From Blastocatellia bacterium (GTDB lineage Bacteria > Acidobacteriota > Blastocatellia > UBA7656): DNA of 64,000 bases. The notes beneath the pieces are model-generated. The model had not been told where the DNA came from. It searched no databases and was given only the letters and a program-made list of their open reading frames with translations. This document shows, piece by piece, positions 27,956-62,903 of the stretch. A program made the position numbers and the translations under genes. The stretch lies in assembly GCA_963765495.1 (NCBI GenBank), contig CAVXWP010000005.1:158531-222530 (forward strand), written 5' to 3'. Every line of letters begins with the position of its first letter. The stretch's first letter is position 1.

Positions 27956-27981
27956 TTACTAAATGTGTCCATCCTTCAGGG

Positions 27982-28812
27982 TCAAAGCCCATACTTGCTT
28001 ACTTCAAGAACAAGCGTATGCGCGACATCACGAATCTCAACGTGCGGGCCTATCGCAAGGAACGCCGCGCCCGTTCCAACGGGCGCGGCGGGCTGCGCGC
28101 CCCCGCGTCTGTAGATCGTGAGATTCAGCTACTCTCGCGCATCTTCTCGCTTGCGGTCGAGCGCAATCTGTTACAGGCCAATCCGTGCAAGGGCATCAAA
28201 CTCGCCAATCCCGGCAATATCGTCATCAAATACCTGACCGTAGAGGATGAAGAGAAGCTGAGACCGTTCCTCACAGGCCGGCGCAAGCATCTGCTGGACA
28301 TTCTCGAAATAGACCTGCACACCGGGATGCGGCGCACGGAGTTTTTGTCGCTGCACGTCTCGCAGATCAATTTCATTCGTGATGAAATCCTTCTGACGAA
28401 GACCAAGAGCGGCAAGCCGCGCCTGGTGCCGATCCATCCAAACATCCGGCCACTGCTGCAACGGCTCTGCAATGAAGCCGGGCCGAACGGCTACCTGTTT
28501 GAGAATCCGAAGACAGGCAAGCCAATCGCCAGTATCAAACCGGCGTGGGAATGTGCGTTGCGCAAAGCGGGCATTCCTCACATTCCTTTTCACTGTGCAG
28601 GCCGTCACACGTTTGGCACACGCGCAGCGGAAGGCGGAGCAAGCCCAACTGATATTCAGGAGATCATGGGCCATGCCAGCGTCACCACGACGATGCGATA
28701 TGTCCATGCGACTGACCAGGGCAAGCGGCGAACGGTTGATGCCGTTGTGAGAGTGACGGAACGGGCAAAGAGTGGCGGAAATGTGGCGGAAGTAAAAAAG
28801 GCAACCCGCTAG
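27982..28812 (+). pseudogene. Tyrosine integrase lacking its N-terminal arm-binding region
   Basis: HTGMRRTE, RHTFGTR, MGHAS..TTMRYVH; homology to the 62904 integrase starts exactly at the IS end (SKPILAYFKNK). Confidence 0.88.
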
Positions 28813-29477: not shown

Positions 29478-31762
29478 GTGCAGCAAAGAAGATCGTTAGA
29501 GAGCGGCCTACTATAACAGAGGCTTCGACCACGGGCGCGCTCACGCCTATAAAGAAGTCTGACAAGGGACCAGTAGCAGTTGACATTAACTCTCTCGCTG
29601 CAACTGCCGTTGGACTAGTGGAGCCTTTCAAAAGTATTCCACCTTGCTAAACCGTCAGCGGTCGCCCCTTGTAAGTCCACTTGAACGGTTTCGCCAGTGT
29701 CTGATTGAAGTAGTCGATGAACTCCAGAATTCTCTGGCGCAGTTCGTCGGTTGATTTGAACGAGGCGCGTTTGAGTAGACGACGTACCAGAATGCTGAAC
29801 CACATCTCAATCTGATTGAGCCACGAGCAATGCTTCGGCGTGTAAACAAACCGAATGCGGTGTTGGCTGCGACTCAGAAACTCGGCGCGACTGCTCATTG
29901 ACTTCAGGATTCCGGATTTGCCTTTCTCGCCCAGATCATCTGGGTAACCGATCTGGGCGGCGACCCAGGCGACCAGTGATTCCGATTGATGGGTGTTGAG
30001 TTGATCAGAGATAAATATCCATTGATCATTGGGAGCCGTGGCAACGGTCTGGGCGATATGGGCGACGAAGTCGGCTTCCGTCCGCGTCGCACCCAGACTG
30101 GGCGCAAGTGGTTTTCCGGTCGCCACCTCGAAGTTGGCGATCAAGCATTGTGTGCCATGCCGAATGTATTCGTACTCCTGGCGCTCGATCTGGCCAGCCT
30201 GATCGGCCAAGCCGGGCTGCATCAGCTTTGTCGGTGCGGCGCGTTCCAGCGCCTGAATGCCAGTCTTTTCGTCCGTGCTCATCAGATGAATGCCTTGTTC
30301 GTGCAGTCGCGGCGCTTGCTCGTAAAGATCGCACACGGTTTTGACTTGTTCGCCGAACGCTTCCGAGTCACGCTCTGGGGCGTTAAGCCAGTATTCACTC
30401 CGATGCGGTTTTAAATCGGTCTGATTTTAAAAAACGCCCGACACTCGACGCCGAGATGCTTGCAACGATCTGGCGTTTGACGACTTCATCGGCTAACTCC
30501 GACGGCGTCCAATGACTGATCGGGCGGGCACTTTTAGCTGTCGCTTCACAGGCGACGGCGACGATCTGCACGATCTGTTCGGCGGTGAAGGTCGGCGGCG
30601 TTCCACGACGCGGCAGATCGCTTAGGCTGGCGACGATCAGTTCGCGCATCTGCTTGTCGCTTTGGTTGGCGACTTCGGCCTGCTGTAGTTTGGGCAGCAG
30701 AGCAAGCCAGCGATTGCGCCACTTACGTACCACGGCGCGATCCATTTGGTGCTGACGGGCGAGTTCGTTATTACCGACGCCAGTGGCCATCGCCAACATC
30801 ATCAAGGCACGAACGACCAGCCGGTATTCTGTGCTGCGTTGCCTGGCGATTTCTTCAACTATCTTTCGCGATCTCTCTGAGAGATCAATCTTCGGGGAAG
30901 TTTGGTTTGGCATCTGTCGCTCCCAGCCCTTGATGTAGATTGCTTCAGATGCTGATTCTACCATTCAAAGAACAAGGTGGAGAATTTCAGAAAGGCTCCA
31001 CTAGGCTTCGACTCTGTTGTGCGCGAGATGCGGAAAGGCTGGGCGCGTCGAGTCCTTTTCCTCATCGAAAATGAGCATCTGGAACCGGCTGAGGCGGTCA
31101 GGATAGCCGGTCAGGGTGATATGCCGACCGACGAATTGATAGAGGAGCTAAAGCGGCGTAACGTCGAATCTATCTCGTGGGGGAATCTTTCGACCATCTA
31201 TGCGCGCGACCCTGACGCTGCCGAGGAGCTTTGGACGGAGATGCAGGAGCAGGCCCGTCAGGAACTTGATAGCGGTCATCGTGCAGCCGAAGTATTCGAG
31301 TCAACCGAGTGGCAGCAGGAACCGTGGAAGCGAGCCCAATACTTGGCTATCCGCGACGGGTTCATAGAAGTGTGGCAGCCGAGGGGCACGCTAGAGCGCA
31401 CTATGATAGATATGCTCGCAGAGTCGTTCGTGATGTTTCAGCACTGGACCGGAGTACACTACTACCGCGCAACCAGTGAAGCGAAAGCGTTGCCGACGGA
31501 AAAGGAAATAAAATTCGCTAAGAAACACAAAGGAGAGTGGTGGCCTCCGCGTGTCTACGAACAGGAGGCTATCGAGCAAGCGGCAGCGATGGCCGACAGG
31601 TTTAATCGGATATTTCTGCGGACGTTACGGAACTTGCGCGATCTTCGGCGATACACAGCGGCAGTTACGATCAACAATCCTGAGCAAGTCAATATAGCCG
31701 CAGATGGGGGGCAGCAAGTAAATGTCCAGAAGAAGGCCAAGAACTGCGCAAACGTTAGATAG
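29474..31762 (+). pseudogene. Hypothetical backbone gene split by IS630
   Basis: ATG overlaps the DUF6788 stop (ATGA); removing the IS and one CTAG rejoins ...AVG-L-GFDSVVREM in frame. Confidence 0.8.
29615..31004 (-). mobile_element. IS630 family element, two-ORF frameshift type
   Basis: 15-bp perfect IR CTAGTGGAGCCTTTC/GAAAGGCTCCACTAG; orfA 30913-30395 (HTH), orfB to 29647 (DEKTGIQ, DQLNTH, SWLNQIE); TTTTTTAAAA slip site near 30430. Confidence 0.92.
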
Positions 31763-32544: not shown

Positions 32545-33642
32545 ATGGCCTTATTGCAAGAGGGCCAGATAATCAGAGACACCTACCGAGTTGAGCGATT
32601 CCTGGGTGAGGGCGCATTTGCTGAGGTTTATAGAGTGCATCATCGATTCCTTGGTCGGCAAGCTTTAAAGGTTCTGAAAGCACCTAGCACTTCGCTTGAG
32701 GAAGTTGAACACATGCTCGCGGAGGCAATTCTGCTTTCGCGAATTGGTCACCCCAATATCATTCGGGTTTTCGACGCCAATGTACTGGATGGTCCAGGTA
32801 GTAGGTTTGCCTTTTTCACGATGGAGTATGTGGCTGGTGGAAATCTCGATTTATTTTGGCGATCCTATCGAGATTCGCTAATGCCAGTTGATGACGCAAT
32901 TGAAGTGATAAAGCAGGTGTGTTCTGGCATTTCGGTAGCTCATAGTGAGAATCCACCTATAGTCCACCGCGACATCAAGCCGCAGAACATCCTCGTAGGT
33001 TATGATGGACTGGGTTTGCGAATTCGAGTTAGTGATTTTGGCTTGGCCAAGCATGTCAACCCGCTTACTCTCCTGGCGAGTTCCAAGGGAACGCTGAGCT
33101 TTAAGCCACCAGAGTCACTCGTTGCTAATATGGACTCGCCCGCGACTGATGTCTGGGCATTAGGTACAACGCTATATGTCCTTCTGACAGATACGCTGCC
33201 ATTTCCTGAGTTGGACAGTCGCGACTTGGCAGACAGTAGGAGGTTACTCCAACCCTTGCGCCCAGCCAGTATTTACAATATCAATGTCGATCTAGCGCTA
33301 GATACTATTCTTGCGCGGTGCCTTGCTAAGGATCCGAAAGACCGATATGCAGATGCCTCTAGGCTGCTGTCCGACTTAACTCGATGGCGAGGTGACCGAT
33401 CAAAGTCCTGTTCGACATATACAACCATTTCTGGAGACGATAAAACGGCATTAGGTTGCGGGCCAGCAGTTGATCTTACAACAGCAGAGCGGATGGTTGA
33501 AGAAGCTCTGGCTCTTGCACAACGACCTAATAGCTTGATGAGTGCTGCAGATCTTTTAGAGGAAGCCATAAACAATGTGCCAAAGCTTCGAGAGCAATAC
33601 GAATCACGCATCAGGCTCTGGCGGCGTGGTGTAAGTATGTGA
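32545..33642 (+). CDS. Hanks-type Ser/Thr protein kinase, soluble, short helical C-tail
   Basis: GEGAFAEV, ALK, HRDIKPQN, DFG, PPE, DVWALG all intact; AAGGAG RBS. Confidence 0.95.
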   Translation: MALLQEGQIIRDTYRVERFLGEGAFAEVYRVHHRFLGRQALKVLKAPSTSLEEVEHMLAEAILLSRIGHPNIIRVFDANVLDGPGSRFAFFTMEYVAGGNLDLFWRSYRDSLMPVDDAIEVIKQVCSGISVAHSENPPIVHRDIKPQNILVGYDGLGLRIRVSDFGLAKHVNPLTLLASSKGTLSFKPPESLVANMDSPATDVWALGTTLYVLLTDTLPFPELDSRDLADSRRLLQPLRPASIYNINVDLALDTILARCLAKDPKDRYADASRLLSDLTRWRGDRSKSCSTYTTISGDDKTALGCGPAVDLTTAERMVEEALALAQRPNSLMSAADLLEEAINNVPKLREQYESRIRLWRRGVSM

Positions 33643-33660
33643 GGAGACAATACGAGTTCG

Positions 33661-36003
33661 ATGCTTGAATTATCTACCCAAGATCCTGAAACTACAGCTT
33701 TACTTGAGATTGCTACTCCGGATCTCTACCGCAGGAATGCATTCCGAATTCTCGGTCTTCAGGTAACGGTTACACCTCGCGAGATCGCGCGACACCAGAA
33801 AAAACTGATAATGTTCAATAAGCTGGACCTTCAATCTGATTCCCGCGAATTTGGCAACGGGTTGCTGCCGCTTGATCCTCCGCCCAGTGTTGACGTAATT
33901 GAGAAAGCAACACATCGCCTTCATAATCCAATAGAGCGTGTGGTTGATGAGTTATTTTGGTTCTGGCCGCAAGACCCCAATAGTGAAGAAGATGATGCCC
34001 TTCAGATGGTACGAGAAAGGAACCTCAATGCGGCTTTATCTTGTTGGATTCTTCATCAAAAGGATGGCAGAGCCGAAACCGTTGCTACTCATAATCTAGC
34101 AGTCCTAAATCATCTACTTGCCCTTGATCTAGAGGCTGCCAGTAATGTACGCCAGTTGAACAAGAGCGAACTCGATTTACGCGATCACTATTGGACACAA
34201 GCTTATTTGAATTGGTGCGCGGTTTCTGAAGACGAAAGCTTTTGGAGTCGAGTGTCCGCACGCATTCGAGAAATCGATGATCCTCGGCTGACAACTGGTG
34301 CTACGCGTCGACTTCGACGTGCCCTTCCCACAGCAATTCTCACAATTAGCGCCAAGCAGGCCATGCACGCGGCAAGGAAAGGAAATATCAACGAAGTTAA
34401 ATTGCATCTTAGATACGTCTGGGAGAGCGATTTCGACAACAGCATCCTTGTCAGAATACTTGAACGTGAAATCGCTCCTACCGTCGAGCAGATTAAAGGA
34501 GTCTGTGCGCCTGCAATTGACGCCGCGGAAGTCAATCCCAACCGAGCCAATAAAATCGTGCGCCGACTTCTTGCAGAGACCAAGACGAATCTCGCGGCTG
34601 TCGAATCAATTCTCGGCAAAGGACACCAAGTCACTGAACTAGCATATGATGCTGTAGCACGAACGATGCGTGAGTGCATTTTAGTCTTTGGTAACGAGAC
34701 CGCTAATTGGAAAGAGTGCTATGAACTCTTGAAAAAGGCTCGCATCATGGCTAGAGACCCTTCTGTTTGTGAGCGAATCGATAATGATATCCATCAAGTA
34801 AAGGAGAACATCGACTCTCAACGGCAATATGAGGATATGAAAAAGGCGATCACTTGTGATCGCATATACGATGTCACGATTAATGGAACAAGAGCCGTAG
34901 TTCTTAACGCCTGTACTTGTTGTTTGAGTAAAGCTGACTCTGAGCAGACAGTTAGTTACAGTTGGGAGGAAAGACGCATCCTGCAAAGGATTAAACGCAC
35001 TCTCTCATTCGATTTCCCGTTATGTGCGGACTGCCACAAACATCAAAGTGAATATGGCCAGAAGAGCTTCGGGTTGGTTGCTCTCGTCGCACTAGCATCG
35101 ATTGCTATCGCTGTTGTAGCACTGAGTCTAATTGGTCAGGTCGACTTAGGCCTCGTACTAATCGAGGGCGCTTTATTGACGACATCTCTTTTCCTTGTAC
35201 TTGGCCGAGCCTTCCATTTGAAGGAACTCCCAGAAGATCATGCCTGCCGGGAGAGACCAGTCAGAATGGTAAGTGCATCTAATACACATGTCACCTTTCG
35301 GTTCTATCATCCTCTTTACGCAAAGCGATTTGCAGAGTCGAATCGTGTCAAGCCGATTGAGAGGAAAGTAACTAAAGCGCCTCGCGGGGGCGGTTTGATT
35401 TCTAAGGCAACTTTGGTTTCGACTTTGTTGCCATCGTTAGCTGTAGCTGGCATCGGGCAGGCGATTGCTTATTCAGTGATACAGGATGGACGTAAGCAGC
35501 AATCCATCAAAATTGAGTCGAGCAACTCGACTCAGCCTTCAAAACAATTCGAGCCACAAATGCCACCATCGTCCCCACAAGCCAGTAAGACTCGCCAAAA
35601 GAGTGATCCTACTAACGTACGAGGATCAGGAACACAGGAGAGCCCTACACATTCCACTTCGCCGCCGATCAACGCAGTGTCGGGTCTTACGGTAAAGATC
35701 GATACTGGCAAAGCAAGAATCCACACTCTTGAGGCGCAACTTGAGCAACTAGATTCGCAACTAGATTCACTAAAAAATCAGATTCAACAATATAAGGTGG
35801 ACCTTGCAGATTACGAGCGCAAAAGCCGCTCGGGTACTTATGTAAATGAGTACAGGTATGAAGAGACATTACAAAACCACAACTCCCTTGTAAATCAGTT
35901 CAATTCAATTATTGAAAAACGCAAGACCGTTTATGCTCAATACAAGATTGAAGTTGAATCAGTGAATGATATGATTCGACGCTACAATGCGGGCGAGCGA
36001 TAA
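33661..36003 (+). CDS. Membrane protein: J-like N-terminus, helical repeats, Cys-rich motif, TM helices, C-terminal coiled coil
   Basis: NAFRILGL...LHNPIERVVDELFW; CTCC...CADCHKH; three hydrophobic spans; heptad LEAQLEQLDSQLDSLKNQI. Confidence 0.75.
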   Translation: MLELSTQDPETTALLEIATPDLYRRNAFRILGLQVTVTPREIARHQKKLIMFNKLDLQSDSREFGNGLLPLDPPPSVDVIEKATHRLHNPIERVVDELFWFWPQDPNSEEDDALQMVRERNLNAALSCWILHQKDGRAETVATHNLAVLNHLLALDLEAASNVRQLNKSELDLRDHYWTQAYLNWCAVSEDESFWSRVSARIREIDDPRLTTGATRRLRRALPTAILTISAKQAMHAARKGNINEVKLHLRYVWESDFDNSILVRILEREIAPTVEQIKGVCAPAIDAAEVNPNRANKIVRRLLAETKTNLAAVESILGKGHQVTELAYDAVARTMRECILVFGNETANWKECYELLKKARIMARDPSVCERIDNDIHQVKENIDSQRQYEDMKKAITCDRIYDVTINGTRAVVLNACTCCLSKADSEQTVSYSWEERRILQRIKRTLSFDFPLCADCHKHQSEYGQKSFGLVALVALASIAIAVVALSLIGQVDLGLVLIEGALLTTSLFLVLGRAFHLKELPEDHACRERPVRMVSASNTHVTFRFYHPLYAKRFAESNRVKPIERKVTKAPRGGGLISKATLVSTLLPSLAVAGIGQAIAYSVIQDGRKQQSIKIESSNSTQPSKQFEPQMPPSSPQASKTRQKSDPTNVRGSGTQESPTHSTSPPINAVSGLTVKIDTGKARIHTLEAQLEQLDSQLDSLKNQIQQYKVDLADYERKSRSGTYVNEYRYEETLQNHNSLVNQFNSIIEKRKTVYAQYKIEVESVNDMIRRYNAGER

Positions 36004-36014
36004 AGGAGATACTT

Positions 36015-36596
36015 GTGAGTAAGAAGCAAGAAGTGAAGACTGTCAAGAAGAGTTTTGAAAAACTGCGAATCTTTATCACAAGCCCGATTACCTATTTCCG
36101 GAAAACATCTCCATTAGAATCAGACGCGAGCCCAAAAGATGAAATGAATCGTTATACCGGTCCCTCGCCCCTACTGAACGTTCAACAAGAAACGTATGAT
36201 CCCCGTGAGATTATGCGTACTCTGGCTACTGTTGCGACGGCACTTTGGCGGGTAAGATCCAAATTGGTAGTGGAAGGGTTAAGCGAGTTGCCGCGAGAAC
36301 TCCGGTATCTTCCAAGGCATGTACAGGCGGCCTGGGATGCGTTGGAGGCCTGCCATATTCAGGTGCAGGATCATAATGAGGAACGTTATTTACCCGGAAT
36401 GGCAGTTAATCCGATCACGTTCCAACCGACCCCAGGGATTGCGACCGAAGTCATTTCTGAAACCATTAAACCGTCAGTATTTTATAAAGACATCCTCATT
36501 CAACGTGCAGATGTGATAGTTGCACAGCCCGTAGAACATCCGAGCGGTGATGCTGATAGCGGGAATGGGGAATCAACAACCATTGAGTCACTTTAG
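36015..36596 (+). CDS. Divergent GrpE-like protein
   Basis: C-terminal beta-domain pattern EVISETIKPSVFYKDILIQRADVIVA; position directly before Hsp70. Confidence 0.65.
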   Translation: MSKKQEVKTVKKSFEKLRIFITSPITYFRKTSPLESDASPKDEMNRYTGPSPLLNVQQETYDPREIMRTLATVATALWRVRSKLVVEGLSELPRELRYLPRHVQAAWDALEACHIQVQDHNEERYLPGMAVNPITFQPTPGIATEVISETIKPSVFYKDILIQRADVIVAQPVEHPSGDADSGNGESTTIESL

Positions 36597-36621
36597 GTTT
36601 GTAGCTAAAGGAGAAAGCCCA

Positions 36622-39133
36622 ATGACGAGGACAAGCATCGACTATGGAATTGATCTTGGTACAACAAACAGTGCGGTGGCAGTGCTAGTCGGCACAACAC
36701 CCGAAGTCATCGCAAGAGTAGATGGGTCTATCGTAACGCCCTCCGCAATCTGGTTTGATAAGCGCGGCCAACAATTTATAGGCCAAAAAGCACGTGGCAA
36801 TTACTTCTCTGATGAAGAGAATGGAGCGATTGAATTCAAGCTACACATGGGAGAAGAGTGGCAAAGAACCTTCCAACGCACCGGGCACAAAATGCTTCCA
36901 GAGGAGATGTCCGCTGAGATTTTGAAATCGCTTAAAGATGATGTTCAAATGATGAAGGGAGAAGACCTGAAGGCTGCAGTAATCACGGTACCCGCTGCAT
37001 TCGAATTGCCGCAGTGCGAAGCAACGAGGCGCGCCGCCAAATTGGCAGGACTGACAATAAGTCCATTACTCCAAGAACCAATCGCGGCAGCACTGGCTTA
37101 CGGCTTTCAATCGGCAGCAAACAAGGTTTTCTGGCTCGTGTACGATTTCGGGGGTGGGACATTCGATGCTGCTGTTATTCAGGTAAGGGATGGTGTACTC
37201 CAAGTCGTAAACCATGCTGGTCATAATTACCTCGGTGGGAAGAATATCGATTGGGAGATAGTAGACAAACTTCTGATACCAAGACTTACGAAAGAATGGA
37301 AGCTCACGGACTTTACACGTCAGAACCCAAAGTGGCGCTCGGCGATTGCAAAAGCTGAAGTTATTCGCTGAGGATGTTAAGATCCAGGTTTCAAGAACCC
37401 GAAAGCCATACGAAATATGGATAGAGAATCTGTGCGAAGATGACCGGGGCGAACTCATCGACTTCGGCTACGAACTGACTCCCGAACAGATTCAGGAGGT
37501 TATCGAACCCTGGGTGGTTCAGTCACTAAACCTCTGCAAAAGGGCCTTACAAGAGAAGGGGCTTTCCGGGCAGGCCATCGAGAAGACCATTCTGGTTGGC
37601 GGCTCTACTCTTTTCCCCTGGCTGCAGGAGCGTGTAGCTGATGAATTGGGAACCCAAATTGATTTCAGCATAGATCCGATTACTGTGGTTGCACGAGGGG
37701 CAGCAGTATTCGCAGGCACACAGAGGCTCACCTTAGATGAGGGATCTGTTAAAGTCGGCTCTTATAAGATTGCCCTTGAATATGAGCCGGTAGGCAGTGA
37801 AACGAATCCTCTAGTCGGAGGGCGAATAGTAGCTCCGGCCAGCACATCTGTACTTGGCTTATCCGTTGAAATCGTTGAGACTCGCAGCCAATGGAGAAGC
37901 GGTAAAATCAGAGTGTCAAATACTGGGACCTTCCTTACTGAAGTAAATGCTGAGAAAGGAAGAAAATGTGAGTTTGAAATCGCATTGTATGATTCTCATG
38001 GCTCTCGTTTGCCGTGTGAGCCCGATAGTTTCTCCTACACCGTAGGGATGGTAATCACGAGCCCGCCTCTGACTCACACAATTGGTGTGGCGATGGCGAA
38101 TAACAAGTTGGACATATTCTTTCCAAAGGGGGAGCCGCTGCCTGCCCGTAAGACAAACCCTTACCACCATACGGCTGTCGCACTCCGCAAGAACGCACCG
38201 GTGGGGCCTGAAAATATCATAAGAATCCCAATAGTAGAGGGAGAAAGTATAAACAAGGCTGATCGTAATCGTCGTATTGGGGTCATCGAAATACTTCCAA
38301 CGGATCCACGAGTAAAGAGAGATGTTCCTATGGGCAGCGATATAGAGATCACGATTGAAGTTGATACGTCACGGACGGCGCGAACAAAGGTATATATCCC
38401 TATACTCGATGAAGAGTTTGAAGAAGTGTTTGAGTCGAATATAACAACAAAGACGCCGGACGAGCTTCGACACGAACTTGATAGTGAATTAGAACGCCTC
38501 CACAAATTGGAAGAAAAGGCAGCGCAAATAAGCGACCAGAGGTGTCAGATCGTACTTTCACGCTTGCAAGAAGAGCAAATCGTTGAAACAGCTAGAAGGC
38601 AGGTTTCGGCAGCAATTGTTGATTCTGAGGCCAGGGCTGAAGGAGACAAGAAACTCCTAGATTTGAAGTTAGCGATTGATTCTGTCGAGGATATATTAAA
38701 ATGGCCCGATTTGGTTAAGGAGGCATGGAATCAGATTAGTGAGACCAAGGCGACTATCGAGGGAGACGGGACAGAATCGGAGAAGGAGCAGATGCAAAGG
38801 CTTGAAGATGCAATTGAAGAGGCAATTGCCGAGGAGCGAATAGAAGTTCTGCGGTCAAAGATTGAGGAGGTGCGCGCGCTCGGCCTCCGTGTGCTTATTC
38901 GCCAGCCTGGCTTCTGGGTTGGTTATTTAGAATATCTTCAAGAACGCCGTGATTTTATGAAAAATCAAGCTGCGGCGGGCTTATTGTTTGATCAAGGGAA
39001 CAAAGCTATCAACAGTAATGACCTAGAAGCACTAAAGGCGGCTGTGCGACAGTTGATAGGCCTACTGCCTGAAGATCAACGAGAAGCAGCAGAAGCGCGC
39101 GGGTCATTTGGAGGAACGACGATACTGAATTAG
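36622..39133 (+). pseudogene. Hsp70 family protein A (about 836 aa if repaired), single-base frameshift at 37350-37353
   Basis: GIDLGTTNS, VITVPAAF, QEPIAAA, DFGGGTFD in first frame; LVGGST, VARGAA in second; removing one A from GCAAAAGCTG restores AIAKLKLFAE. Confidence 0.88.
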
Positions 39134-39261
39134 CAGGCACTAACTTACATCATGCTGCATTTGCGAGAGTTGGTTAGGTTTCTTCTGCAGATCCTACCGG
39201 GCACATTTTTGGCAGCAGCAATAGTATCGAAGGATGAAACATACCGAAAGGAAAAAGTTTT

Positions 39262-41019
39262 ATGAGTAACATCATCGGTATTGATTTCGGGACTACAAAG
39301 ACCATAGCTGCTTTTATGAAGGATGGTTCTCCAGTAGTAATCACTGATCGCCGAGGGCGGAATAGTATTCCTTCGTTACTACTACTTACACCAGAGACGG
39401 AATCATCTGCATTCATCGGATGGGAAGCCAAAGAGCATCATAACCGCTATGATATTGATCATTTAACCATTAGCTCTATAAAGCGTTCATTAGGCAAAGG
39501 GCAGCGGCACCGATGGAACTGGCTTTACGAACACCCGCAGACAATTGCCGGATTGATACTCGCTCGATTAAAGCTTGAGGTTGAACATGAGTTGGGCGAG
39601 AAAATTAAACAAGCCGTTATTGCGATTCCAGCGAATTATAACATAAATCAGCGTTGGGCGATTAAGCAGGCTGCCGAACTTGCCGGGCTAGAGGTAGTCA
39701 GGCTACTCAATGAGGCAACCGCCGCCGCCCTTTATTATCAATTCCAGCATTTGAATGAAGAGAGGTTGATACTGATTTTCGATTTAGGCGGTGGCACGTT
39801 AGATGTGTCGATTGTCGAAATTGGGACGGGTACTTGCGAGGTTAGGGCAACTGCTGGGGATGGTCAATTGGGTGGTGATGATTTTGACCAAGTGTTGACG
39901 AACTACATATTTCAAACGGCTTTTACAGAAATTGATGACCTCAGACCGCTTGAACTGTTTCAGCAATTAGTCTTAAAAGAAGCTGTGACCAGAGCAAAGA
40001 TTGAATTAAGTTCGGCACAATCGAGTCAAATCTATCTACCTAGTTTTATACAGCGAGCCTCAAATCCACCGAAGAATCTGGATATCACCATACAGCGCGA
40101 GACATTTAATGAGTTAACGCAAAGCTTGCTAATGCGGACTGAAAAGGTAATAAAGGAAGCGTTGAAATCGGTTGGTGCTGCAAGTCTGGATGCCGCTTTG
40201 ATGATTGGCGGCGGAAGCCGTAACCCTGCGGTGCGCGAACTTGTTCGTAACGCCGTTGGGTTACAACCATTTGTTGGAGTTGATCCTGAAACCTGCGTCG
40301 CTCAAGGGGCAGCGGTGCAAGCGGGTATTCTTAATGGTAAAACAAGAGACCTTTTGTTACTGGATATAATACCGCATTCACTGTCCGTGGAAACCGAAGG
40401 TGGCACGGCCAGCACATTACTTAAGAAAGACACGACTATTCCAACTCGCCAGAGCAAGATCTTCACTACCGTTAAGAATAACCAATATAAAATCGAAGTC
40501 AGTATTTATGAGGGGGAACATAGCATGGCAAAGGACAATACCTTCATAGGAAGCATCACCTTAGACGGAATCAAACCCGCACAACGCGGTCAAACAGAGA
40601 TAGAAGTCACATTCGACATTGATGCAAATGGAATTCTTGAGGTAGAGGCAAAAGATTTGTCTACTGGCAAGAAAGTCAGTACGAATTTTGATGCTCCTTT
40701 CCGTCTTACGTCAAAGGAACTTGTGAGGAGCAAGGAATTCATGGCTCAAATTATCTCCAAGATAGCCGTCCAACTTTCATACGAGGAAGAGGTAATTCGT
40801 ATCGAGAATCTCAAGCGAACTGCAGTAATTTGGAAGCAGAATATTGAAGAGTCAATTGAATCACACAGAGAGAATTTCACTGATAGTGAATTATCAATAC
40901 TGCATTCAGGTCTGCAATTACTCCTAGATTATGCTGAACAAGGTATATCTTCAGAAGAATTAGGGAAAATCTATACCGGTCTTAAACAACAAATTGATAT
41001 CTTCATGACAGAAACTTGA
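39262..41019 (+). CDS. Hsp70 family protein B (DnaK/HscC-like)
   Basis: GIDFGTTKT, NEATAAA, DLGGGTLD, linker DLLLLDIIP, IEVTFDIDANGIL. Confidence 0.93.
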   Translation: MSNIIGIDFGTTKTIAAFMKDGSPVVITDRRGRNSIPSLLLLTPETESSAFIGWEAKEHHNRYDIDHLTISSIKRSLGKGQRHRWNWLYEHPQTIAGLILARLKLEVEHELGEKIKQAVIAIPANYNINQRWAIKQAAELAGLEVVRLLNEATAAALYYQFQHLNEERLILIFDLGGGTLDVSIVEIGTGTCEVRATAGDGQLGGDDFDQVLTNYIFQTAFTEIDDLRPLELFQQLVLKEAVTRAKIELSSAQSSQIYLPSFIQRASNPPKNLDITIQRETFNELTQSLLMRTEKVIKEALKSVGAASLDAALMIGGGSRNPAVRELVRNAVGLQPFVGVDPETCVAQGAAVQAGILNGKTRDLLLLDIIPHSLSVETEGGTASTLLKKDTTIPTRQSKIFTTVKNNQYKIEVSIYEGEHSMAKDNTFIGSITLDGIKPAQRGQTEIEVTFDIDANGILEVEAKDLSTGKKVSTNFDAPFRLTSKELVRSKEFMAQIISKIAVQLSYEEEVIRIENLKRTAVIWKQNIEESIESHRENFTDSELSILHSGLQLLLDYAEQGISSEELGKIYTGLKQQIDIFMTET

Positions 41020-41115: not shown

Positions 41116-42340
41116 TGGATCTTCCCCCATTGAGTGGAGATAAAGTTAAGTCACTGTTGCCTACGCGTTAGTTTCAGCACTCCTTGTCTGAACCTTTCTT
41201 CATACTCTGCCGGAGATAGATACTCTGTTGCTGAATGTATCCTCTCCCGATTGTAATACACTTCGATATACTCGAAGATGCTGTCTCGTGCTTCTTCTCT
41301 GGTCAGGTATCTCTCATTATGCACCAGTTCTACCTTTAAGCCAGAGAAGAAACTCTCTGCCACTGCATTGTCCCAACAATTTCCTCTTCGGCTCATACTC
41401 TGCTGGCAGTTGTATTTCGATAGATGCTCTCTAAAGGCAGCACTGGCATAAGGCAGCCACCACCAGTTCTGTCGTGATCCGCTCACTCATCGACCACCCA
41501 ACTACCATCCTTGAATGCAGATCAACGAAGACGGCCAGGTAGAGCCATCCTTCAAGCGTCCAGATGTATGTTATATCACTCACCCACACACAATCCGTGT
41601 GATTGACCTTAAAGGCTCGCCCCAGAAGATTGTCTGCCACCGGGAGTTTGTGGCGCGAATCCGTAGTCTGCTTAAACTTCTTCACACGCTTGGATTTAAT
41701 TGAGTTTTCTCGCATTAGGCGCTCTACTCGCTTGTGGTTACAGTTTTCACCTTCCTCTCTGAGTTGACGATAAATCTTAGGGCTTCCATAGTTTTGGCGG
41801 CTCTGCTTATGGATAGATTGAATCTTCTCCAAGAGTCTGAGGTTCCGCTTCGCCCTCTGGCTTATTTCACGCCTGCAAAAGCGATAATAACCCGATATGC
41901 TCACCTCTAAAACGCGGCACATTGCAGTGATGGAAAACTCCTGTTTCTGCTCTCTTATAAAGGCGTACTTTACCTGAGGTGAGAGGCAAAGTAGGCCGCC
42001 GCTTTTTTTAGTATCTGGTTCTCCTCTTCCAGTCGCTTGAGTCTTTGCTGCAACTCAAAGACCTCCTGTTGGTGAGGCGAACGATTACCATTGCCCCTAA
42101 AAGCATCCTTACCTTCCTTGCGTGCGGAAGAGACCCAGCGAGAAAGGCTCCAGTAAGGTATGCCGAGGCTTGTAGAAGCATCAGACAGGGATCGACCCTG
42201 CTCAGTGACGAGCCGAACCGCGCCTTCCTTAAATTCTTTCGAGTAAGTTTTTCTCTGTTTCATAGTACCTCCTATTATGTCAAAGGTTGCGTTGGAGGCA
42301 TATGACTTAACTCCCCCTCTACTCTACGGGGGAAGGTTCA
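41116..42340 (-). mobile_element. IS3 family element, inactive (orfB internal deletion)
   Basis: TG..CA ends with IR TGGATCTTCCCCC/GGGGGAAGGTTCA, 4-bp TSD TTTC, orfA 42263-41970, A7G slip site, orfB WVSDITY and GNCWDNAVAESFF in different frames. Confidence 0.9.
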
Positions 42341-42730: not shown

Positions 42731-44770
42731 TTATTCTACCCCTAAAGCCTTGAAAACTGCATCAATCGGGTCTGCGTAGAAACTGATTTGAAACTTGGCG
42801 AAGAGTTCGCCGGGTACAGTGGGAATATCGCCGACGCTGCTCATCGGTATGAGAATTCGTTTCGCACCGCCATCAAACGCCAATTGCAAAGTTTCAGCCA
42901 AATTCTCGACCGGGACAATGCTCCCTCCTAAGCTCATATCGCCCAGAGCAACCATCTGACTTTGTAAAGGTTTCCCCAGAAGCCCTGAACACAATGCAAT
43001 AAAACTGGCGAGAGTCATAACAGATGCAGGACCCGTATTGTGCAATTCAACAGTGTGAACGTGATAGTCAAAATCGAGAGCCTTTGCCGACGCGCTCACT
43101 CTTGAGACATTCGCTTTAAAATAATCGAATGCTACCCTGATAGGCTCTTTCGCTTTTTGGCTCGAATCAACGCCGGAGATTGATAACTTTCCACCACCCG
43201 CTATTACCTGCAACTCCAAGCGATACAGGCCAAGAAAACCATTATTTCCTGTCGCGACCGTATGGAGTGTTCCCGGATTCAACTGCCCTTCGGGGATTAA
43301 AGAACCGCCGCCTTGTTCGGGTACGGCGACAAAGTTTTCTTTCAAACTATCGTTTTCAATGTAGCTGAAATGAACATCGTAGAATTCCATTCCACCTATC
43401 TTCTTCAATTGTTCTTTCACACGGCGTCGGGTCTCTAAAGCATACTCAAGACACTGCTGCACTGCTTCTTTGCCGAAATCTCCATTGGGGTATAAGAGTT
43501 TCAATAAGCCCGATACAGTCCTACGAACAGCAATCGTGTCTCGTTGGTTCAGGTTGTTGCCAAGTTTGAAATACTTATCTAATGCATCAGAGAAGCTTCG
43601 TCTTCTCATCTCGCGCAAGAACTCCGCAAGATAGTCAACGATGAAGCCGTATTGATTAGTGAAGAACTCAGGGCGCATTTTGGGGATTTCCCAACCGGGA
43701 ATGTAGCAGTGCATTCTGTCGAAGAAAGCTGAATCAATCATATCATCAGGGAAAGGCGCAAACAGATGGCTTGTCTTCACCATTGTATCAACGCTCTGAT
43801 TGATATTGCCGATAAAGACCATCGCGGCATTGGCATTGATGGAATCGCGTCCTCTTGAAAAAGAGCCTGATGCCATAAAATCCTTCATTATCTGAATGCC
43901 ATCTTTGTCCTTGAAAGAGATCCCTGCAACTTCATCAAACGCCACAATGTCCCACAGCCCAACTAATCCGACTTTGTGTGTACTCATATTATAGAAAAGG
44001 TTCGGCACGGTGGTTTGCCCGCCCGATACGAGAATGCTATTCGGACTGATCTCTTTGTAGAGATGGCTCTTTCCTGTGCCTCGTGGCCCAAGCTCGCAGA
44101 CGTTGTAGTTATTCTCAACGAAGGGAATCATTCGGGCTATGAGGTGCCACTTCACCCGCTCATTAAAAGCCGTTGGCTCCATTCCTGTCGACCGTAGCAA
44201 GACATCCATCCATTGCTTTTCAGTAAATGCCCTACGTCCTTCAAAAAGGGCTTCCATATCCATATTGGGCATCTGAATCGGCTTCAGCTCGGTTATGATA
44301 AATGGCGAACCTTTTTGATTCTCTTCGTAAAAATAATCCATCGAGATAATGCACCAGATGCCGCCAACTAAAAGCTTCTCGTACTTCTTAACCACCTCAT
44401 CTGATATTTCGGCGTTCTTCACGCCCAAGTTCGACAGTAGCGCCTCGTAGACATCTCGCTTCTCATTCAGCTTGACGGTCACCTTGTCTATAAGCTTATA
44501 GCTGCCGCGCTCTCTGATCTTCGATTTAATCTTTTCCGCTTCATCCGGTCGAACGAAATTTTCAGCAAGTATGTCTTTGACTCTCTGCAAACCTTCCTGC
44601 ATCACCTTTTCATCATCCGAAGCGCAGTACATACCAAGCAGATACTCAAGCACATAGACAGGCACGTTTGCGCCTTCCTTGACCAACTTCGTCAGGTCTT
44701 TGCGTACGACTCTGCCCGCGAAATGCTGATTTAACAGAATATCTAAATTTATGTGGCTTTCGTTCTCCAT
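42731..44770 (-). CDS. brxL: BREX Lon-like AAA+ protein BrxL
   Basis: GRVVRKDL, NVPVYVLEYLLGMYC, ELGPRGTGKS, FDEVAG, Lon-like C-terminus. Confidence 0.96.
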   Translation of the reverse strand: MENESHINLDILLNQHFAGRVVRKDLTKLVKEGANVPVYVLEYLLGMYCASDDEKVMQEGLQRVKDILAENFVRPDEAEKIKSKIRERGSYKLIDKVTVKLNEKRDVYEALLSNLGVKNAEISDEVVKKYEKLLVGGIWCIISMDYFYEENQKGSPFIITELKPIQMPNMDMEALFEGRRAFTEKQWMDVLLRSTGMEPTAFNERVKWHLIARMIPFVENNYNVCELGPRGTGKSHLYKEISPNSILVSGGQTTVPNLFYNMSTHKVGLVGLWDIVAFDEVAGISFKDKDGIQIMKDFMASGSFSRGRDSINANAAMVFIGNINQSVDTMVKTSHLFAPFPDDMIDSAFFDRMHCYIPGWEIPKMRPEFFTNQYGFIVDYLAEFLREMRRRSFSDALDKYFKLGNNLNQRDTIAVRRTVSGLLKLLYPNGDFGKEAVQQCLEYALETRRRVKEQLKKIGGMEFYDVHFSYIENDSLKENFVAVPEQGGGSLIPEGQLNPGTLHTVATGNNGFLGLYRLELQVIAGGGKLSISGVDSSQKAKEPIRVAFDYFKANVSRVSASAKALDFDYHVHTVELHNTGPASVMTLASFIALCSGLLGKPLQSQMVALGDMSLGGSIVPVENLAETLQLAFDGGAKRILIPMSSVGDIPTVPGELFAKFQISFYADPIDAVFKALGVE

Positions 44771-44782
44771 ATTGTTTTGTCG

Positions 44783-47404
44783 TTAAAAGTCATTCGTAAA
44801 GGCCAGATCAATAGTTATGGGGTAGCGCTCGTACTCGATCTTCGTGTCGGCATCGCGCAACACTAGCGCATACTCGAATGTTTTATCATACTGTCCCGTC
44901 TTGATGACCAGTTGCGATACTTGTTTTCGGTCCTCCAATGATTGAGACGCGCTATCGAAAGTGATGGTCTCTTCATTGCTTATCAACTCTCCGCCTTTTC
45001 GCAAAGAAATGAGCAAGATTCTCGGCTGTACGCGGTCACTTACTGGTTCAGTTTGAATGAACTCAAAACGCTGCACATTATTAGAGACTCTACGATTAGA
45101 ACCAAGGAGTGAAACACTCACTTTGCGAACAACAGACTTCTCAGCCTCTAGCCCTTTCAACTCTTTAACCTGCACTATAGGAACGACAATCTCTTGCAAC
45201 ATCGCGCCGCCGTGAATGAACCGCGCGCCGCCTGTGAAGTGAAAACGATTTGCGCCCTTTGGAATCCAGAACTCCATTTCGGTTTCCGTATTCGCTGTTA
45301 TTCGCGTGTTGCTGTGCCAGACGTTGATCTCTTTGCCCAGGTTATCGCCAATCAAATAACGCTTCTTCGCTCGAAGCGTACCGCTTGGCTTGCTAGCAAG
45401 TCCGCTCCGGTCAGGCAGTCTAGGCGAAACCTCTTGATACAGAAATCCGTGGTCTGCTGTTATCAGCACATTGCTGCCGTTCAACTTGTTGATGATGTGC
45501 CGCACAAGCGCAGAGAGTTCATTGATTGCCACTCGGACGGCACTGAAGGTCTGCGACTCGGTTGATGCAGTATCGCCAATCGCATCTACCTGATTGTGGT
45601 AGATATAAATTACCCGATAATTCTTAACGAACTCCCGCCCTTCGTCGCGGCTCATCGCTATCAAGTCCTCGACTTTAATCGCTGTTCCTTGAACTTTCCC
45701 CAGCGCTTTGGCGCGTTCAATGAACGAAGAGACAACTTGACCGTCAGCCATCAAATCGAGATTGCTCGTGTGTTTGTAATCCAGCTTGTCGTGCGGCAGA
45801 AGCGAAGCCATCCCAAGCGCAGTGTAGCTGGGCAGCACTCCCAAGTGCGTGTTGAGCCGGGCTTGCAAACGGTTCTTCCCGTTTATCTCTCGCGCCAATT
45901 CCTCAGCCGCTTCAAAACGAAAAGCGTCGCTGATGATGACATAAGCCTTGCTGTGCGGCGATAAATCAAGAATCGGTTGAACGAATTTCTTATAAAAATC
46001 CTGCTGGTTGGGAATCTCTTTTAACTTCCATTGCCGAATTAAGCCTTGATGGTTTGCGTCTTCAATGAAAATACTCCACGCGGCGGCAAGCTGATCAATG
46101 AACCAGCCGCTATAACAATCCTCAACCACATCGCGCAATACCTTGAGTACATCCCAGCCTTGCAATTCGACTTTATCCGCCGCTTCGTGAAACAGACGAT
46201 AAAACTGGTCGAATCTGAACAACTCTTCGATGTATGCCGCATACATCGCTTCCGCGCTCGCATAGCTCAACCCGTTTGCATACTTGTTTCTCAATGCTAG
46301 CAAATCAGCAGCCGCTTCAATCGCGTCATACACGCTTCGATAATGGCTGCCCGACTCTGCATCCGAAGAAGCCCTAGCCCAATAGCCATCACGCCGTTTT
46401 TTGATAACCTCTTTTACTTGTTCGAACTCTTCCGTCTTGTTGATAATAACCTTGTCGCGCAGATTGCGAATGATCTGTTTCTCCACGGCTTCAAAGGTCA
46501 TCACTTCAAGTAACGCAGACTCGTCAAAGTCGCGCAGGTGGGCTTCAAGTTTCATTTCGTCTTCGATATGTCTTGCAACCGAGTCATAGCTGACGTGATG
46601 TGTGATATTCAATCGCCAGTGCGATAGAAAGACCGAAGCGTTTACCGATTGCGTATTGGCAGAAAGCAAAAAATGGCGCATTGATTGCGGCAAGCCGCCG
46701 TTGAAATACCTGGCGAAGTCGGCAATCAGCAGGCGAATCAATAAGTCTCTGAGGTTCGGTTCCTGCTCTGCGTACGCGAATTCATTCTTCGCCAAATCCC
46801 AGAAGGTTTCTGCGATCCCGAACTTTTCAACATCGCTCCAACTCTTCGGCGGCGCGCTCAAATCGCACTCGCCTTTGTCACAATATTCGCCAAAGAGTTT
46901 CATCAAAATCTCAAAGAAAGTCGGCTGGTCTGCGCGTACCAGCACGGCGAGCATCTTCATATCCAGATCGCGCTCAGCATCACTCGTGTGAACGAATCTT
47001 TTGAGGCGGTTCAAACGGTCTTTGCTGGCGAAAAACTGCTTGCGCTTATCGATGTGAAAGCGTAATGCCTGATGCGTCAGCCCGAGTTCATCCAGAACCA
47101 TTGAAGCCGAGTCCGCATGAAAGATGCGGCTGTAGAGTTGAATATCGAGTAACCAGTTCTTTCCAATTGCAGGCTCGGCAAACGGCGCATAGAGCAGATA
47201 GCGCGATTCCAGGTCTTCGATTTCTAGTTGAATCTTTAATGCCAGATCGCCGATTTCATTTCTGCGGATGATCTTTACTTCGGGCAAGTCGAGCGCGGCA
47301 AGATCGCTTTCAAACTCTCTGCTATCGTCGTACCAGAAGACGATGCGATGCCCTTCTGTCTCGTAGATGCCGCGCAAACTCTCTGTCAGCTTCGCAGGGT
47401 TCAT
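44783..47404 (-). CDS. pglZ: BREX-1 PglZ (BrxZ) alkaline phosphatase-fold protein
   Basis: RIVFWYD, IISDAFRFE, LPSYTALGMASLLPH, TADHGF, FIHGGAMLQE. Confidence 0.96.
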   Translation of the reverse strand: MNPAKLTESLRGIYETEGHRIVFWYDDSREFESDLAALDLPEVKIIRRNEIGDLALKIQLEIEDLESRYLLYAPFAEPAIGKNWLLDIQLYSRIFHADSASMVLDELGLTHQALRFHIDKRKQFFASKDRLNRLKRFVHTSDAERDLDMKMLAVLVRADQPTFFEILMKLFGEYCDKGECDLSAPPKSWSDVEKFGIAETFWDLAKNEFAYAEQEPNLRDLLIRLLIADFARYFNGGLPQSMRHFLLSANTQSVNASVFLSHWRLNITHHVSYDSVARHIEDEMKLEAHLRDFDESALLEVMTFEAVEKQIIRNLRDKVIINKTEEFEQVKEVIKKRRDGYWARASSDAESGSHYRSVYDAIEAAADLLALRNKYANGLSYASAEAMYAAYIEELFRFDQFYRLFHEAADKVELQGWDVLKVLRDVVEDCYSGWFIDQLAAAWSIFIEDANHQGLIRQWKLKEIPNQQDFYKKFVQPILDLSPHSKAYVIISDAFRFEAAEELAREINGKNRLQARLNTHLGVLPSYTALGMASLLPHDKLDYKHTSNLDLMADGQVVSSFIERAKALGKVQGTAIKVEDLIAMSRDEGREFVKNYRVIYIYHNQVDAIGDTASTESQTFSAVRVAINELSALVRHIINKLNGSNVLITADHGFLYQEVSPRLPDRSGLASKPSGTLRAKKRYLIGDNLGKEINVWHSNTRITANTETEMEFWIPKGANRFHFTGGARFIHGGAMLQEIVVPIVQVKELKGLEAEKSVVRKVSVSLLGSNRRVSNNVQRFEFIQTEPVSDRVQPRILLISLRKGGELISNEETITFDSASQSLEDRKQVSQLVIKTGQYDKTFEYALVLRDADTKIEYERYPITIDLAFTNDF

Positions 47405-47409
47405 TAAGG

Positions 47410-48270
47410 CTATGGCCTCCTATAGGCTGGATGGTTTGAAATAGATAGCTGGGCAAGCCTCTCAAGAAGCTTGTAATAGTGCTCATATACTTTTACTGCT
47501 ACGCTGAATAAATCTAAGAATTGCCAGTCTGCCTCAAGCAAAGGCTTATAATAAGGGTAGATCTCTCTATAATCTACTGATAGGGGCATCCGGTGTTCTA
47601 AGGCATGCCTATATTCCCAAAAGGCTTCCATTTCTGGAAATACATCACGCCTCATCTCATTCACAATCTCTTCGAGTTCTCTATATTCTGGGTCAGGCAT
47701 TGCTGATAAAACTGCATTCTTTCCACGATCTTCAACTCCAGCTTTTATATTTTTAAGGGTTAATTGCCGTTCCCACTCTTTCCGTGTTGTTTTTATAGAA
47801 TCAAACGATCTGTCAGCAGCTTCAAATATCAACCTAGCAATTAAATCCTCTAATTTCTTTATAGCTTTGAGTGCTCCGTGAAACTCATCCATCATTCTAA
47901 AGTGAATTATTCTTAGAATCTGTTGGGGTCGCTCTGTATCTAAGTAGTACTTCTCTACCTCTTTGTATCCACGCGCCCTTAACAATTTCGTTCGAGCATC
48001 ACCAAGCATATTGCCCATCTCAAACCAAATCCAAAATTCTTCAGATTCCTTAAATTCTCTGTAATTTGTTAGTGGAGAAAAATCAAGAATGTCAGGTAGG
48101 AATTTATACCAGATGGACTCAATTCTAGTTTCAATCTCTAAATGAAGCGGAATCCATTGATCATTTGTAACGGCTTCTCCTGTATCTGCCATCTCGACAG
48201 AAAACTCATTGGTTGCCTTTATTTCACCGTCTTTTTCTTGCTCAATTTTAACTCGCGCTATTTCAGCCAT
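47410..48270 (-). CDS. Putative HEPN-domain protein (Cthe_2314-like) inside BREX
   Basis: AT-rich helical ORF with Rx4H motif YRHALEHR; AAAGGAG RBS; 5 bp from pglZ start. Confidence 0.6.
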   Translation of the reverse strand: MAEIARVKIEQEKDGEIKATNEFSVEMADTGEAVTNDQWIPLHLEIETRIESIWYKFLPDILDFSPLTNYREFKESEEFWIWFEMGNMLGDARTKLLRARGYKEVEKYYLDTERPQQILRIIHFRMMDEFHGALKAIKKLEDLIARLIFEAADRSFDSIKTTRKEWERQLTLKNIKAGVEDRGKNAVLSAMPDPEYRELEEIVNEMRRDVFPEMEAFWEYRHALEHRMPLSVDYREIYPYYKPLLEADWQFLDLFSVAVKVYEHYYKLLERLAQLSISNHPAYRRP

Positions 48271-48312
48271 ACTTTCTCCTTTTGAAGTAAGATGAGCGGA
48301 CTTAACCGCGAA

Positions 48313-53134: not shown

Positions 53135-53151
53135 CACAGTATTACTACTCG

Positions 53152-62899: not shown

Positions 62900-62903
62900 C
62901 CCG

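Follow-up and report, generated by a model that had tools for sequence, protein, structure and literature searches.

A kinase-coupled Hsp70 gene cassette opposite a BREX locus: gene order, components and possible roles

Does a row of genes for a protein kinase and a set of Hsp70-type chaperone proteins, lying in a mobile region opposite a bacteriophage exclusion (BREX) locus, form a system in its own right, and if so, of what kind? The question is raised by a stretch of 64,000 nucleotides from a Blastocatellia bacterium (contig CAVXWP010000005.1), referred to here as the window, in which positions 32545-41019 of the + strand carry, in this order, genes for a kinase, a J-like membrane protein, a GrpE-fold protein and two Hsp70s, H70A and H70B. 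An earlier note on this sequence had proposed that these genes encode a private chaperone cycle tied to a kinase and that they are the cargo of a defence island. We lean, with slightly better than even confidence, towards reading 32545-39133 as a copy of a widespread, horizontally mobile and undescribed module: a private Hsp70 machine coupled to a kinase, which would serve membrane-anchored, chaperone-gated phospho-signalling, and of which the window holds a foreign and probably crippled copy. The data presented below back the identities and synteny of the genes, the folds of their products, the size of the family, and the foreign origin and missing parts of the window copy, on all of which this reading draws.

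Gene order across the cassette family

The five genes of the row are the following:

32545..33642, + strand: KIN, Ser/Thr kinase of 365 aa (Pfam Pkinase)
33661..36003, + strand: P2, J-like membrane adaptor of 780 aa (profile alignment and predicted structure)
36015..36596, + strand: P3, GrpE-fold protein of 193 aa (predicted structure and Foldseek)
36622..39133, + strand: H70A, atypical Hsp70 of ~836 aa, two frames joined near 37346-37353 (PF00012)
39262..41019, + strand: H70B, DnaK-like Hsp70 of 585 aa (PF00012)

By the coordinates of their open reading frames (ORFs), the gaps between them are 18, 11, 25 and 128 bp. The GC content is 0.43-0.49 over 32-41 kb, compared with 0.49-0.61 over 1-24 kb of the window, and the row faces the BREX locus on the - strand, amid insertion sequence (IS) and integrase genes. 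Coordinates, GC content and Pfam context thereby agree with the earlier description of five co-oriented, tightly spaced, AT-richer genes inside a mobile region facing BREX. Its assignment of the products to an intact Ser/Thr kinase, a membrane protein with a J-like N-terminus, a GrpE-like protein and two different Hsp70s is likewise borne out by Pfam, profile and fold evidence.

The earlier note had also suggested homologues of the products encoded from 33661 (P2) and 36015 (P3) as a gauge of gene-order conservation, and the order was indeed found to be kept in more than 100 loci. The locus set numbers 140, of which 75 are genome loci and 65 stem from an alignment-based scan of metagenomes; many are too short to show all neighbours. 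The genome loci come from a motif scan of one genome per species, which gave 214 genomes with a relative and from which 75 loci were kept; a metagenome scan with the single window protein found no relative. In 51/69 genome loci and 39/43 metagenome loci, a kinase gene lies no more than 2 kb upstream of the adaptor gene. Downstream of the adaptor, a gene for a GrpE-like protein follows within 1.5 kb in 48/61 genome loci and 37/38 metagenome loci, and one for a long Hsp70 corresponding to H70A within 3 kb in 40/53 and 26/26, respectively. The order seen in the window (kinase, J-like adaptor, GrpE-like protein, long Hsp70) is that of most loci, whose hosts belong to Planctomycetota, Verrucomicrobiota, Acidobacteriota, Chloroflexota, Nitrospirota, Bacteroidota, Actinomycetota and further groups. 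Such recurrence, in over 100 loci and across many phyla, goes far beyond what chance would produce, and by this synteny KIN, P2, P3 and H70A form one dedicated, co-inherited set.

The second Hsp70 of the window has no part in this pattern. A close homologue of H70B adjoins H70A in 0 of the 140 loci, the lone nearby weak match being in locus L015, and the homologues of H70B at 64% and 52% identity sit among housekeeping genes (MazG, RibF, ABC1 kinase, topoisomerase I and TPR proteins), with no cassette genes near them. On account of this absence next to H70A and of the unrelated contexts of its relatives, H70B was rejected as a member of the cassette; it is an unrelated passenger, and the double Hsp70 is an accident of the window locus rather than a feature of the system. 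The proposal of a private chaperone cycle tied to a kinase is thus upheld for the kinase, the J-like protein, the GrpE-like protein and the first Hsp70, which are co-inherited by synteny, and had to be given up for the second Hsp70, which had been counted as part of the conserved set. H70B itself is intact, matches PF00012 at 5.3e-134 with the model covered to position 570 of 599, and forms with ~12 clusters (58-67% identical) a small, rare subfamily, beyond which follow ordinary DnaKs at ~45%. In one of the loci with an H70B relative (L177, 9161-12540 on contig C65 of genome G435; 64% identity), this gene is flanked on the same strand by two short ORFs, of 226 aa and 201 aa, that match no Pfam family and may encode its own partners.

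What usually follows H70A is a gene for a TPR protein, found directly after it in 38/47 genome loci and 20/25 metagenome loci. This partner is predicted to consist of a cytoplasmic TPR region and one transmembrane helix, carries an OmpA-like domain, taken to be periplasmic, in 40 loci and LysM in L067, and is the usual fifth core component of the family. Membrane anchoring of both the adaptor and this TPR partner is indicated by their predicted hydrophobic or transmembrane segments. Over the 140 loci, the neighbours of the cassette were counted as follows:

TPR or TPR-OmpA proteins: 66
ClpB-like double AAA+ proteins: 21
small Clp_N proteins: 13
extracytoplasmic function (ECF) sigma factors: 10
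small FHA proteins: 7
FHA-domain transcription regulators: 7
PP2C: 6

In the closest clade to the window (L077, L093, L105, L110, L116 and L003), the kinase, adaptor, GrpE-like protein and Hsp70 are followed by a small TPR protein, a small FHA protein or both. In place of a ClpB-like gene, some cassettes are followed by one for a NACHT protein (L074, 15788-18046) or for a protein with Sel1 and AAA domains (L028, 18737-20980), and in L025 (18276-20387) a true DnaJ with TPR comes after the ClpB-like gene.

Properties of the encoded proteins

KIN matches Pfam Pkinase at 3.2e-45, with the kinase domain at residues 14-269. Its catalytic residues, namely the ATP-binding lysine K42, E60, H141-R142-D143, N148 and D164-F165-G166, are invariant in a 34-sequence alignment that includes 33 cassette orthologues, to which KIN is 51-69% identical, and a helical tail at its C-terminus (AADLLEEA...LWRRG) is conserved as well. 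Among the NCBIfam models, KIN stays below the cut-offs of MAD6 (144.7 bits, cut-off 460) and PglW (70.4 bits, cut-off 990), and also below that of PknB. It is the dedicated Ser/Thr kinase of the cassette.

P2 matched no Pfam family above the cut-off, nor PF00226 (DnaJ) at E<=0.01. Its first 385 residues are conserved in all relatives, with motifs NAFRxLGL ... DELFWFWP and many invariant tryptophans, and residues 1-390 were modelled as an all-alpha structure at a predicted local distance difference test score (pLDDT) of 93.4 and a predicted template modelling score (pTM) of 0.89. The predicted helices at 27-31, 39-54, 77-88 and 90-98, which precede a long helical array, have a spacing that fits the four-helix pattern of a J-domain. 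When the first 112 residues of the P2 family were compared with 31 true J-domains (from this genome, its relatives and L025), hhalign placed P2 27-95 on J-domain positions 4-63 with a probability of 77.7% and a P value of 1.9e-5 over 60 columns. The HPD tripeptide is absent from residues 1-110; at the aligned site the window protein has K-L-D, and 38 relatives show no conservation there. The N-terminus of P2 is thus J-like by prediction, yet fails the defining motif of J-proteins.

Beyond this unit, the P2 model gave no Foldseek match in PDB at E<=1e-3, and VIA-align of the model found residues 271-390 TPR-like or helical-repeat at Z 8-12, with residues 1-138 barely covered. The architecture of P2 can be described as a J-like four-helix unit (~20-100), a helical TPR-like domain (~100-385), a Cys-rich unit (~418-461) and a C-terminal coiled coil. 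The Cys-rich unit has the pattern CxCC...CxxC..H, with cysteines that are invariant in the window's clade, and hydrophobic segments lie at 473-491, 498-516 and 585-603. A Protein Atlas search with the homologue P0041 returned unnamed clusters and weak DnaJ leads at 0.81, which we count as leads only.

Out of 1.84 billion representatives, HMMER picked out 4249 with the adaptor domain at E<=1e-3, of which 1332 reach E<=1e-30; the domain therefore defines a large family for which Pfam has no model. For 46 of 63 long adaptors, Pfam shows no additional domain, and the rest carry Sel1, HEAT (one together with cyclophilin), REC, Toprim_Crpt, DUF4190, RDD or FHA; none of the 63 has a nuclease or toxin domain by Pfam. 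In L096 the adaptor carries a fused FHA domain, and several loci hold two or three adaptor paralogues with different C-termini, some of them in tandem. Across the family, the adaptor C-terminus appears to vary between membrane anchors and repeat scaffolds.

P3 of the window has no match in Pfam. In its family, 13 of 34 members match PF01025 weakly (E<=1, the best at 8.5e-5), and the family profile recovers the GrpE structure 4ani from PDB at a weak E of 0.4. The AlphaFold model of P3, built from a 34-sequence alignment, has a pLDDT of 81.4, rising above 90 over residues 61-172, and the 12 best PDB structures that Foldseek returned for it are without exception GrpE chains (E 4.3e-5 to 1.3e-2, probability 0.97-1.0). 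Because of these matches, P3 is predicted to have the GrpE fold, with a long helix, a helical bundle and a C-terminal beta domain, and it is presumed to be the nucleotide-exchange factor of H70A.

H70A comprises a nucleotide-binding domain (NBD), an inserted domain, a region resembling the beta part of a substrate-binding domain (SBD) and a long helical tail, in which the motif LLP...RG[YF]G[SG]T[IV]I is conserved. Its two halves match PF00012 at 1e-52 and 3.4e-18, and both H70A and H70B fall below the DnaK and HscA equivalog cut-offs of NCBIfam. For the SBD, the alignment is weak, with residues 289-452 of the C-terminal part placed on DnaK 433-577 at an independent E of 17. Compared by eye with the motifs of DnaK, the phosphate-binding motifs of H70A are present, whereas the hydrophobic linker between the domains, which in H70B reads DLLLLD, seems to be missing from H70A.

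The reading frame of H70A is broken at 37346-37353, in the run gcAAAAgc. With the intact L077 orthologue as tblastn query, the alignment runs at 71% identity as far as ...AIAK and continues at 63% in the following frame with LKLF...; as no further stop interrupts the gene, the break is a single extra base. The Hsp70 of L090 (4340-4480) is broken within a few codons of the same place in the opposite direction, and those of L024 and L035 are broken elsewhere. A programmed frameshift was considered and rejected, given the opposite direction of the L090 break and the other positions of those in L024 and L035. The recurrent breaks in the long Hsp70s could reflect a mutational hot spot, repeated gene decay or assembly errors in metagenome-assembled genomes.

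The window copy: origin, damage and surroundings

Among 41 genomes searched, the adaptor occurs only in the window's own (1/41); the 40 relatives without it comprise 24 from the same family, five from the same order and 11 from the same class. The host genome has two canonical DnaKs and one GrpE elsewhere. With the adaptor in a single genome and housekeeping DnaKs and GrpE encoded separately, the cassette must be an additional set of genes, gained by horizontal transfer. No match to the adaptor domain was found in 72,556 plasmids, 50,697 phage records and viral contigs.

The usual partners are absent from the window. By tblastn at E<=0.01, no homologue of the TPR, TPR-OmpA, FHA, ClpB-like, Clp_N, PP2C or ECF proteins was found in its 64 kb, and H70B and IS3 debris occupy the site at which relatives carry the TPR and FHA genes. 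Because H70A is frameshifted and the TPR and FHA genes are missing, we regard the window copy as probably crippled or inactive foreign cargo of the island. What this locus illustrates is that the cassette moves horizontally into defence or mobile islands and can decay there.

The elements around the cassette are the following:

27901..28812: tyrosine integrase (Pfam)
29615..31004, - strand: IS630-type element (DDE_3 and HTH) with 32-nt inverted repeats at its ends, upstream of the cassette (Pfam and repeat scan)
41151..42263, - strand: IS3-family transposase remnants (Pfam HTH_Tnp_1, HTH_21, rve, rve_2/rve_3), between H70B and BrxL
42731..58011, - strand: type I BREX locus (Pfam), with BrxL, PglZ, a 286-aa ORF, PglX, a Fic-domain protein, BrxC, BrxB and BrxA
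62865..63977: second integrase, also a tyrosine integrase (Pfam), at the end of window and contig

All six type I BREX families in Pfam (BrxA, BrxB, BrxC, PglX, PglZ and BrxL) were found in 42731-58011 on the - strand; the locus is context, outside the cassette. Within it, the Fic-domain gene (52079-53137) is inserted between BrxC and PglX, and the 286-aa ORF (47410-48270), which has no Pfam family, lies between PglX and PglZ. Another ORF without a Pfam family, of 324 aa (58416-59390), lies just upstream of BrxA. The region 59721-63977 encodes a primase-like protein of 935 aa (DnaG zinc ribbon and Toprim) and then the tyrosine integrase, a pair that resembles the core of an integrative element, the other end of which would lie beyond the contig.

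Upstream of the cassette, further transposase fragments accompany the IS630-type element and the tyrosine integrase. A single 1-kb bin (25001-26000) shows a GC skew of -0.41 and an AT skew of -0.25 over split DDE transposase ORFs (25111-25662 and 25666-26784), and no tandem repeat was found in it. A 26-nt inverted repeat (25646-25671 / 27956-27981) encloses two transposase ORFs, and an ORF of 130 aa matching DUF6788 at 5.2e-16 (29085-29477) lies between the integrase and the IS630-type element. A 26-nt direct repeat (31697 / 63795, 81% identity) was considered as the ends of the element and judged to be chance, the adjoining ORFs being unrelated. A promoter and terminator scan of 31700-41300 gave counts no higher than the shuffled expectation.

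Possible roles and comparison with known systems

For the favoured reading, a chaperone-gated phospho-signalling module, the direction of control and every binding step are inferred. The membrane-anchored adaptor would recruit H70A through its J-like unit, and the GrpE-like P3 would reset or recycle H70A. This chaperone cycle would gate the kinase, with either the kinase itself or an activating partner being held or let go; the FHA partner would then read phospho-threonine, PP2C would erase it, and transcription or a Clp-type unfoldase may receive the output. Read in this way, the module would be the bacterial equivalent of sensors that work by chaperone titration, such as BiP with IRE1/PERK or DnaK with sigma-32. 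The conserved tails of the Hsp70 and the kinase are, speculatively, candidate docking motifs for the TPR elements. A more specific version can be framed by analogy, and we offer it tentatively, as one of rather low probability: the adaptor, lacking HPD, would load Hsp70 onto the kinase or its activator, and titration of this Hsp70 by misfolded, foreign or envelope-derived proteins would free the kinase, with the private GrpE resetting the Hsp70 and FHA sensing the phospho-threonine mark. The cassette would then be a prokaryotic counterpart of BiP-IRE1/PERK, spread across many phyla by horizontal transfer and recruited in the window's clade to mobile islands as an alarm for infection or stress.

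Several points weigh against the favoured reading. The J-like call for P2 is a moderate one, drawn from one alignment of moderate probability (77.7%) and predicted helices, and a search of PDB with the P2 family profile returned no J-domain, giving chance-level coiled-coil matches only. The frameshift in H70A, lying in an A-run, could be an assembly error. The locus set includes repeats, a few metagenome loci duplicating genome loci; L022 and L098, for example, have identical coordinates, and so do L057 and L123. In 18/69 genome loci no kinase is adjacent, so that the kinase is not obligatory; these are mostly of the Actinomadura type, with the order GrpE-like protein, Hsp70, TPR protein, adaptor and no dedicated kinase, and the other exceptions are contig ends. 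Finally, mobile or defence neighbours are more frequent in the window's clade, by raw counts and in small numbers, and a defence role is possible there.

The last of these points bears on the view that the cassette is an anti-phage (abortive-infection) system, in which the chaperones would sense phage proteins or envelope damage and unleash a toxic kinase. The window copy does lie between IS or integrase genes and BREX and is foreign to its lineage; single-kinase defence systems such as Stk2 and PD-T4-6 exist, and the kinase domain of KIN resembles the PD-T4-6 and mad6 models at 1e-54 to 1e-61. In PADLOC-DB 2.0.0, however, KIN gave the sole match of note in the cassette, to generic kinase models (mad6, PD-T4-6 and PglW), far under curated cut-offs in NCBIfam; P3, H70A and H70B matched no PADLOC family, and P2 gave chance-level LmuB matches only. 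The statement of the earlier note that the gene set matches no named system is consistent with these results. For the neighbours, 254 flanking ORFs from 48 genome loci (up to three genes per side) were scanned with Pfam and PADLOC, and 27 flanking ORFs from six close metagenome loci with PADLOC, some of them also with Pfam. Specific defence neighbours occurred, by raw count, in 2/48 genome loci: HmaC of Hma (E=0) and GmrSD/HEC-06 in L031, and PDC-S06 in L050. Restriction-modification methyltransferases were found in two of the six close metagenome loci (L105 and L106), and a transposase in L077. The other PADLOC matches of neighbours were generic, with ClpB-like proteins matching DolB or PDC-M37B through one AAA domain, sigma-54 activators matching RtcR, and further matches to kinases, a group II intron reverse transcriptase, DinG, SNF2 and IstB; most neighbours are housekeeping genes. 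At the level of the family, no link of the cassette with defence islands is apparent, and the description as defence-island cargo therefore fits the window copy, in its mobile and defence-rich region, and not the family at large. The adaptors moreover carry no toxin or nuclease domain and had no match among plasmids, phages and viral contigs, and the recurrent FHA, PP2C, ECF sigma factor, TPR-OmpA and ClpB-like partners are typical of reversible signalling; by sequence, these partners point to signalling and proteostasis rather than a toxic kinase. We consider an anti-phage role distinctly unlikely.

Reverse wiring is a serious rival, if still an unlikely one. The chaperone would then be the output, with Hsp70 and a ClpB-like partner forming a dedicated machine for unfolding or assembly that serves a membrane or envelope client and with kinase, FHA and PP2C tuning its activity. 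ClpB-like double AAA+ genes lie beside the cassette in 21 loci and small Clp_N genes in 13, which recalls the DnaK-ClpB bi-chaperone; in many cases the TPR partner has an OmpA-like or LysM domain, of the kind that binds peptidoglycan, a region similar to an SBD is retained in H70A by weak alignment, and the paralogous adaptors with varied C-termini found in several loci resemble J-proteins for different clients. Yet there is no conserved candidate client gene, ClpB-like genes occur in a minority of loci and, like the TPR gene, are missing from the window copy, and the kinase is the most conserved component, which fits a central rather than an accessory role. It is also conceivable, although improbable in our judgement, that the window copy is fully functional, the frameshift being an assembly error and H70B having replaced the TPR and FHA genes in a clade-specific variant with two Hsp70s. 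The break is a single base in a homopolymer between halves that are otherwise intact (63-71% identity to L077), KIN, P2 and P3 are intact, H70B begins only 128 bp after H70A with a plausible ribosome-binding site, and a second Hsp70 paralogue occurs in L029, L032, L046, L088 and L095. Those second Hsp70s, however, are H70A-like and not H70B-like, the relatives of H70B lie in unrelated contexts, IS3 debris abuts H70B, and the other long genes of the 64-kb window are all unbroken, which argues against a generally error-prone assembly.

Returning to the reading of the cassette as a signalling module, we compared it with known systems. To our knowledge, dedicated bacterial Hsp70 systems are few (DnaK, HscA and HscC), and none has been connected with a Ser/Thr kinase. 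The cassette resembles DnaK-DnaJ-GrpE in having an Hsp70 with an intact NBD, a GrpE-fold partner and a J-like partner. It differs in that the J-like unit has neither HPD, a motif thought essential for J-protein action, nor a PF00226 match, and in that the GrpE-like protein stays below the Pfam threshold; H70A is also ~200 residues longer, the operon includes a dedicated kinase, and the housekeeping copies lie separately in the genome. HscC of Escherichia coli, with DjlB and DjlC, is likewise a non-housekeeping Hsp70 with its own membrane-anchored co-chaperones. DjlB and DjlC carry true J-domains, and the HscC system is not known to include a GrpE-type factor or a kinase.

On the side of signalling, type VI secretion has a threonine-phosphorylation pathway (PpkA-PppA-Fha, with ClpV and an OmpA-like anchor) but is not known to include a set of Hsp70, GrpE and J-like proteins. 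The accessory set of the cassette, which consists of a Ser/Thr kinase, PP2C, FHA, a Clp-type AAA+ protein and a TPR/OmpA-like envelope anchor, is similar to it, and no structural genes of type VI secretion were seen in the cassette flanks scanned with Pfam. Chaperone-titration sensors are known in BiP/ERdj4 with IRE1/PERK and in DnaK/DnaJ/GrpE with sigma-32. Here too an Hsp70 cycle could gate a signalling protein, with a J-type adaptor targeting the chaperone; the likeness is an analogy of mechanism only, as the sensor parts share no homology and the link between chaperone and kinase in the cassette is genomic only.

A parallel in gene content comes from the GAP1-N2 GTPase-centric conflict systems, for which the available text describes a theme of HSP70 and GrpE, with a second HSP70 or DnaJ-FNIII in some (Kaur, Burroughs, Iyer & Aravind 2020, PMC7159879). 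As far as that text goes, the defining feature of these systems is the presence of one or two GAP1-N2 TRAFAC GTPases, and a theme of kinase and PP2C is separate from, and alternative to, the Hsp70 theme (PMC7159879). In the account given there, they share with the cassette the pairing of a private Hsp70 and a GrpE of its own, in some cases joined by another Hsp70, as well as the J-type adaptor to which variable domains are fused; they differ in that kinase and Hsp70, alternatives there, are combined in the cassette. With Pfam, no GTPase domain was found in the five window proteins, in the window flanks or in the flanking genes scanned at other loci. Full-text literature searches found no paper describing the cassette; the supplements of Kaur et al. 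2020 lay outside the search and might list related neighbourhoods. In the available text of a review of bacterial Hsp70 machines, the word "kinase" occurs 0 times (Mayer 2021, PMC8215388).

Set beside these systems, the cassette family is a dedicated Hsp70 system coupled to a kinase, in which the adaptor is not a J-protein by the HPD test and the exchange factor is a GrpE by fold only. Its fixed partnership with a conserved kinase, FHA and PP2C suggests that an Hsp70 cycle can serve as a bacterial signalling switch; if true, this would represent a new class of chaperone-controlled phospho-signalling together with a new way to activate Hsp70.

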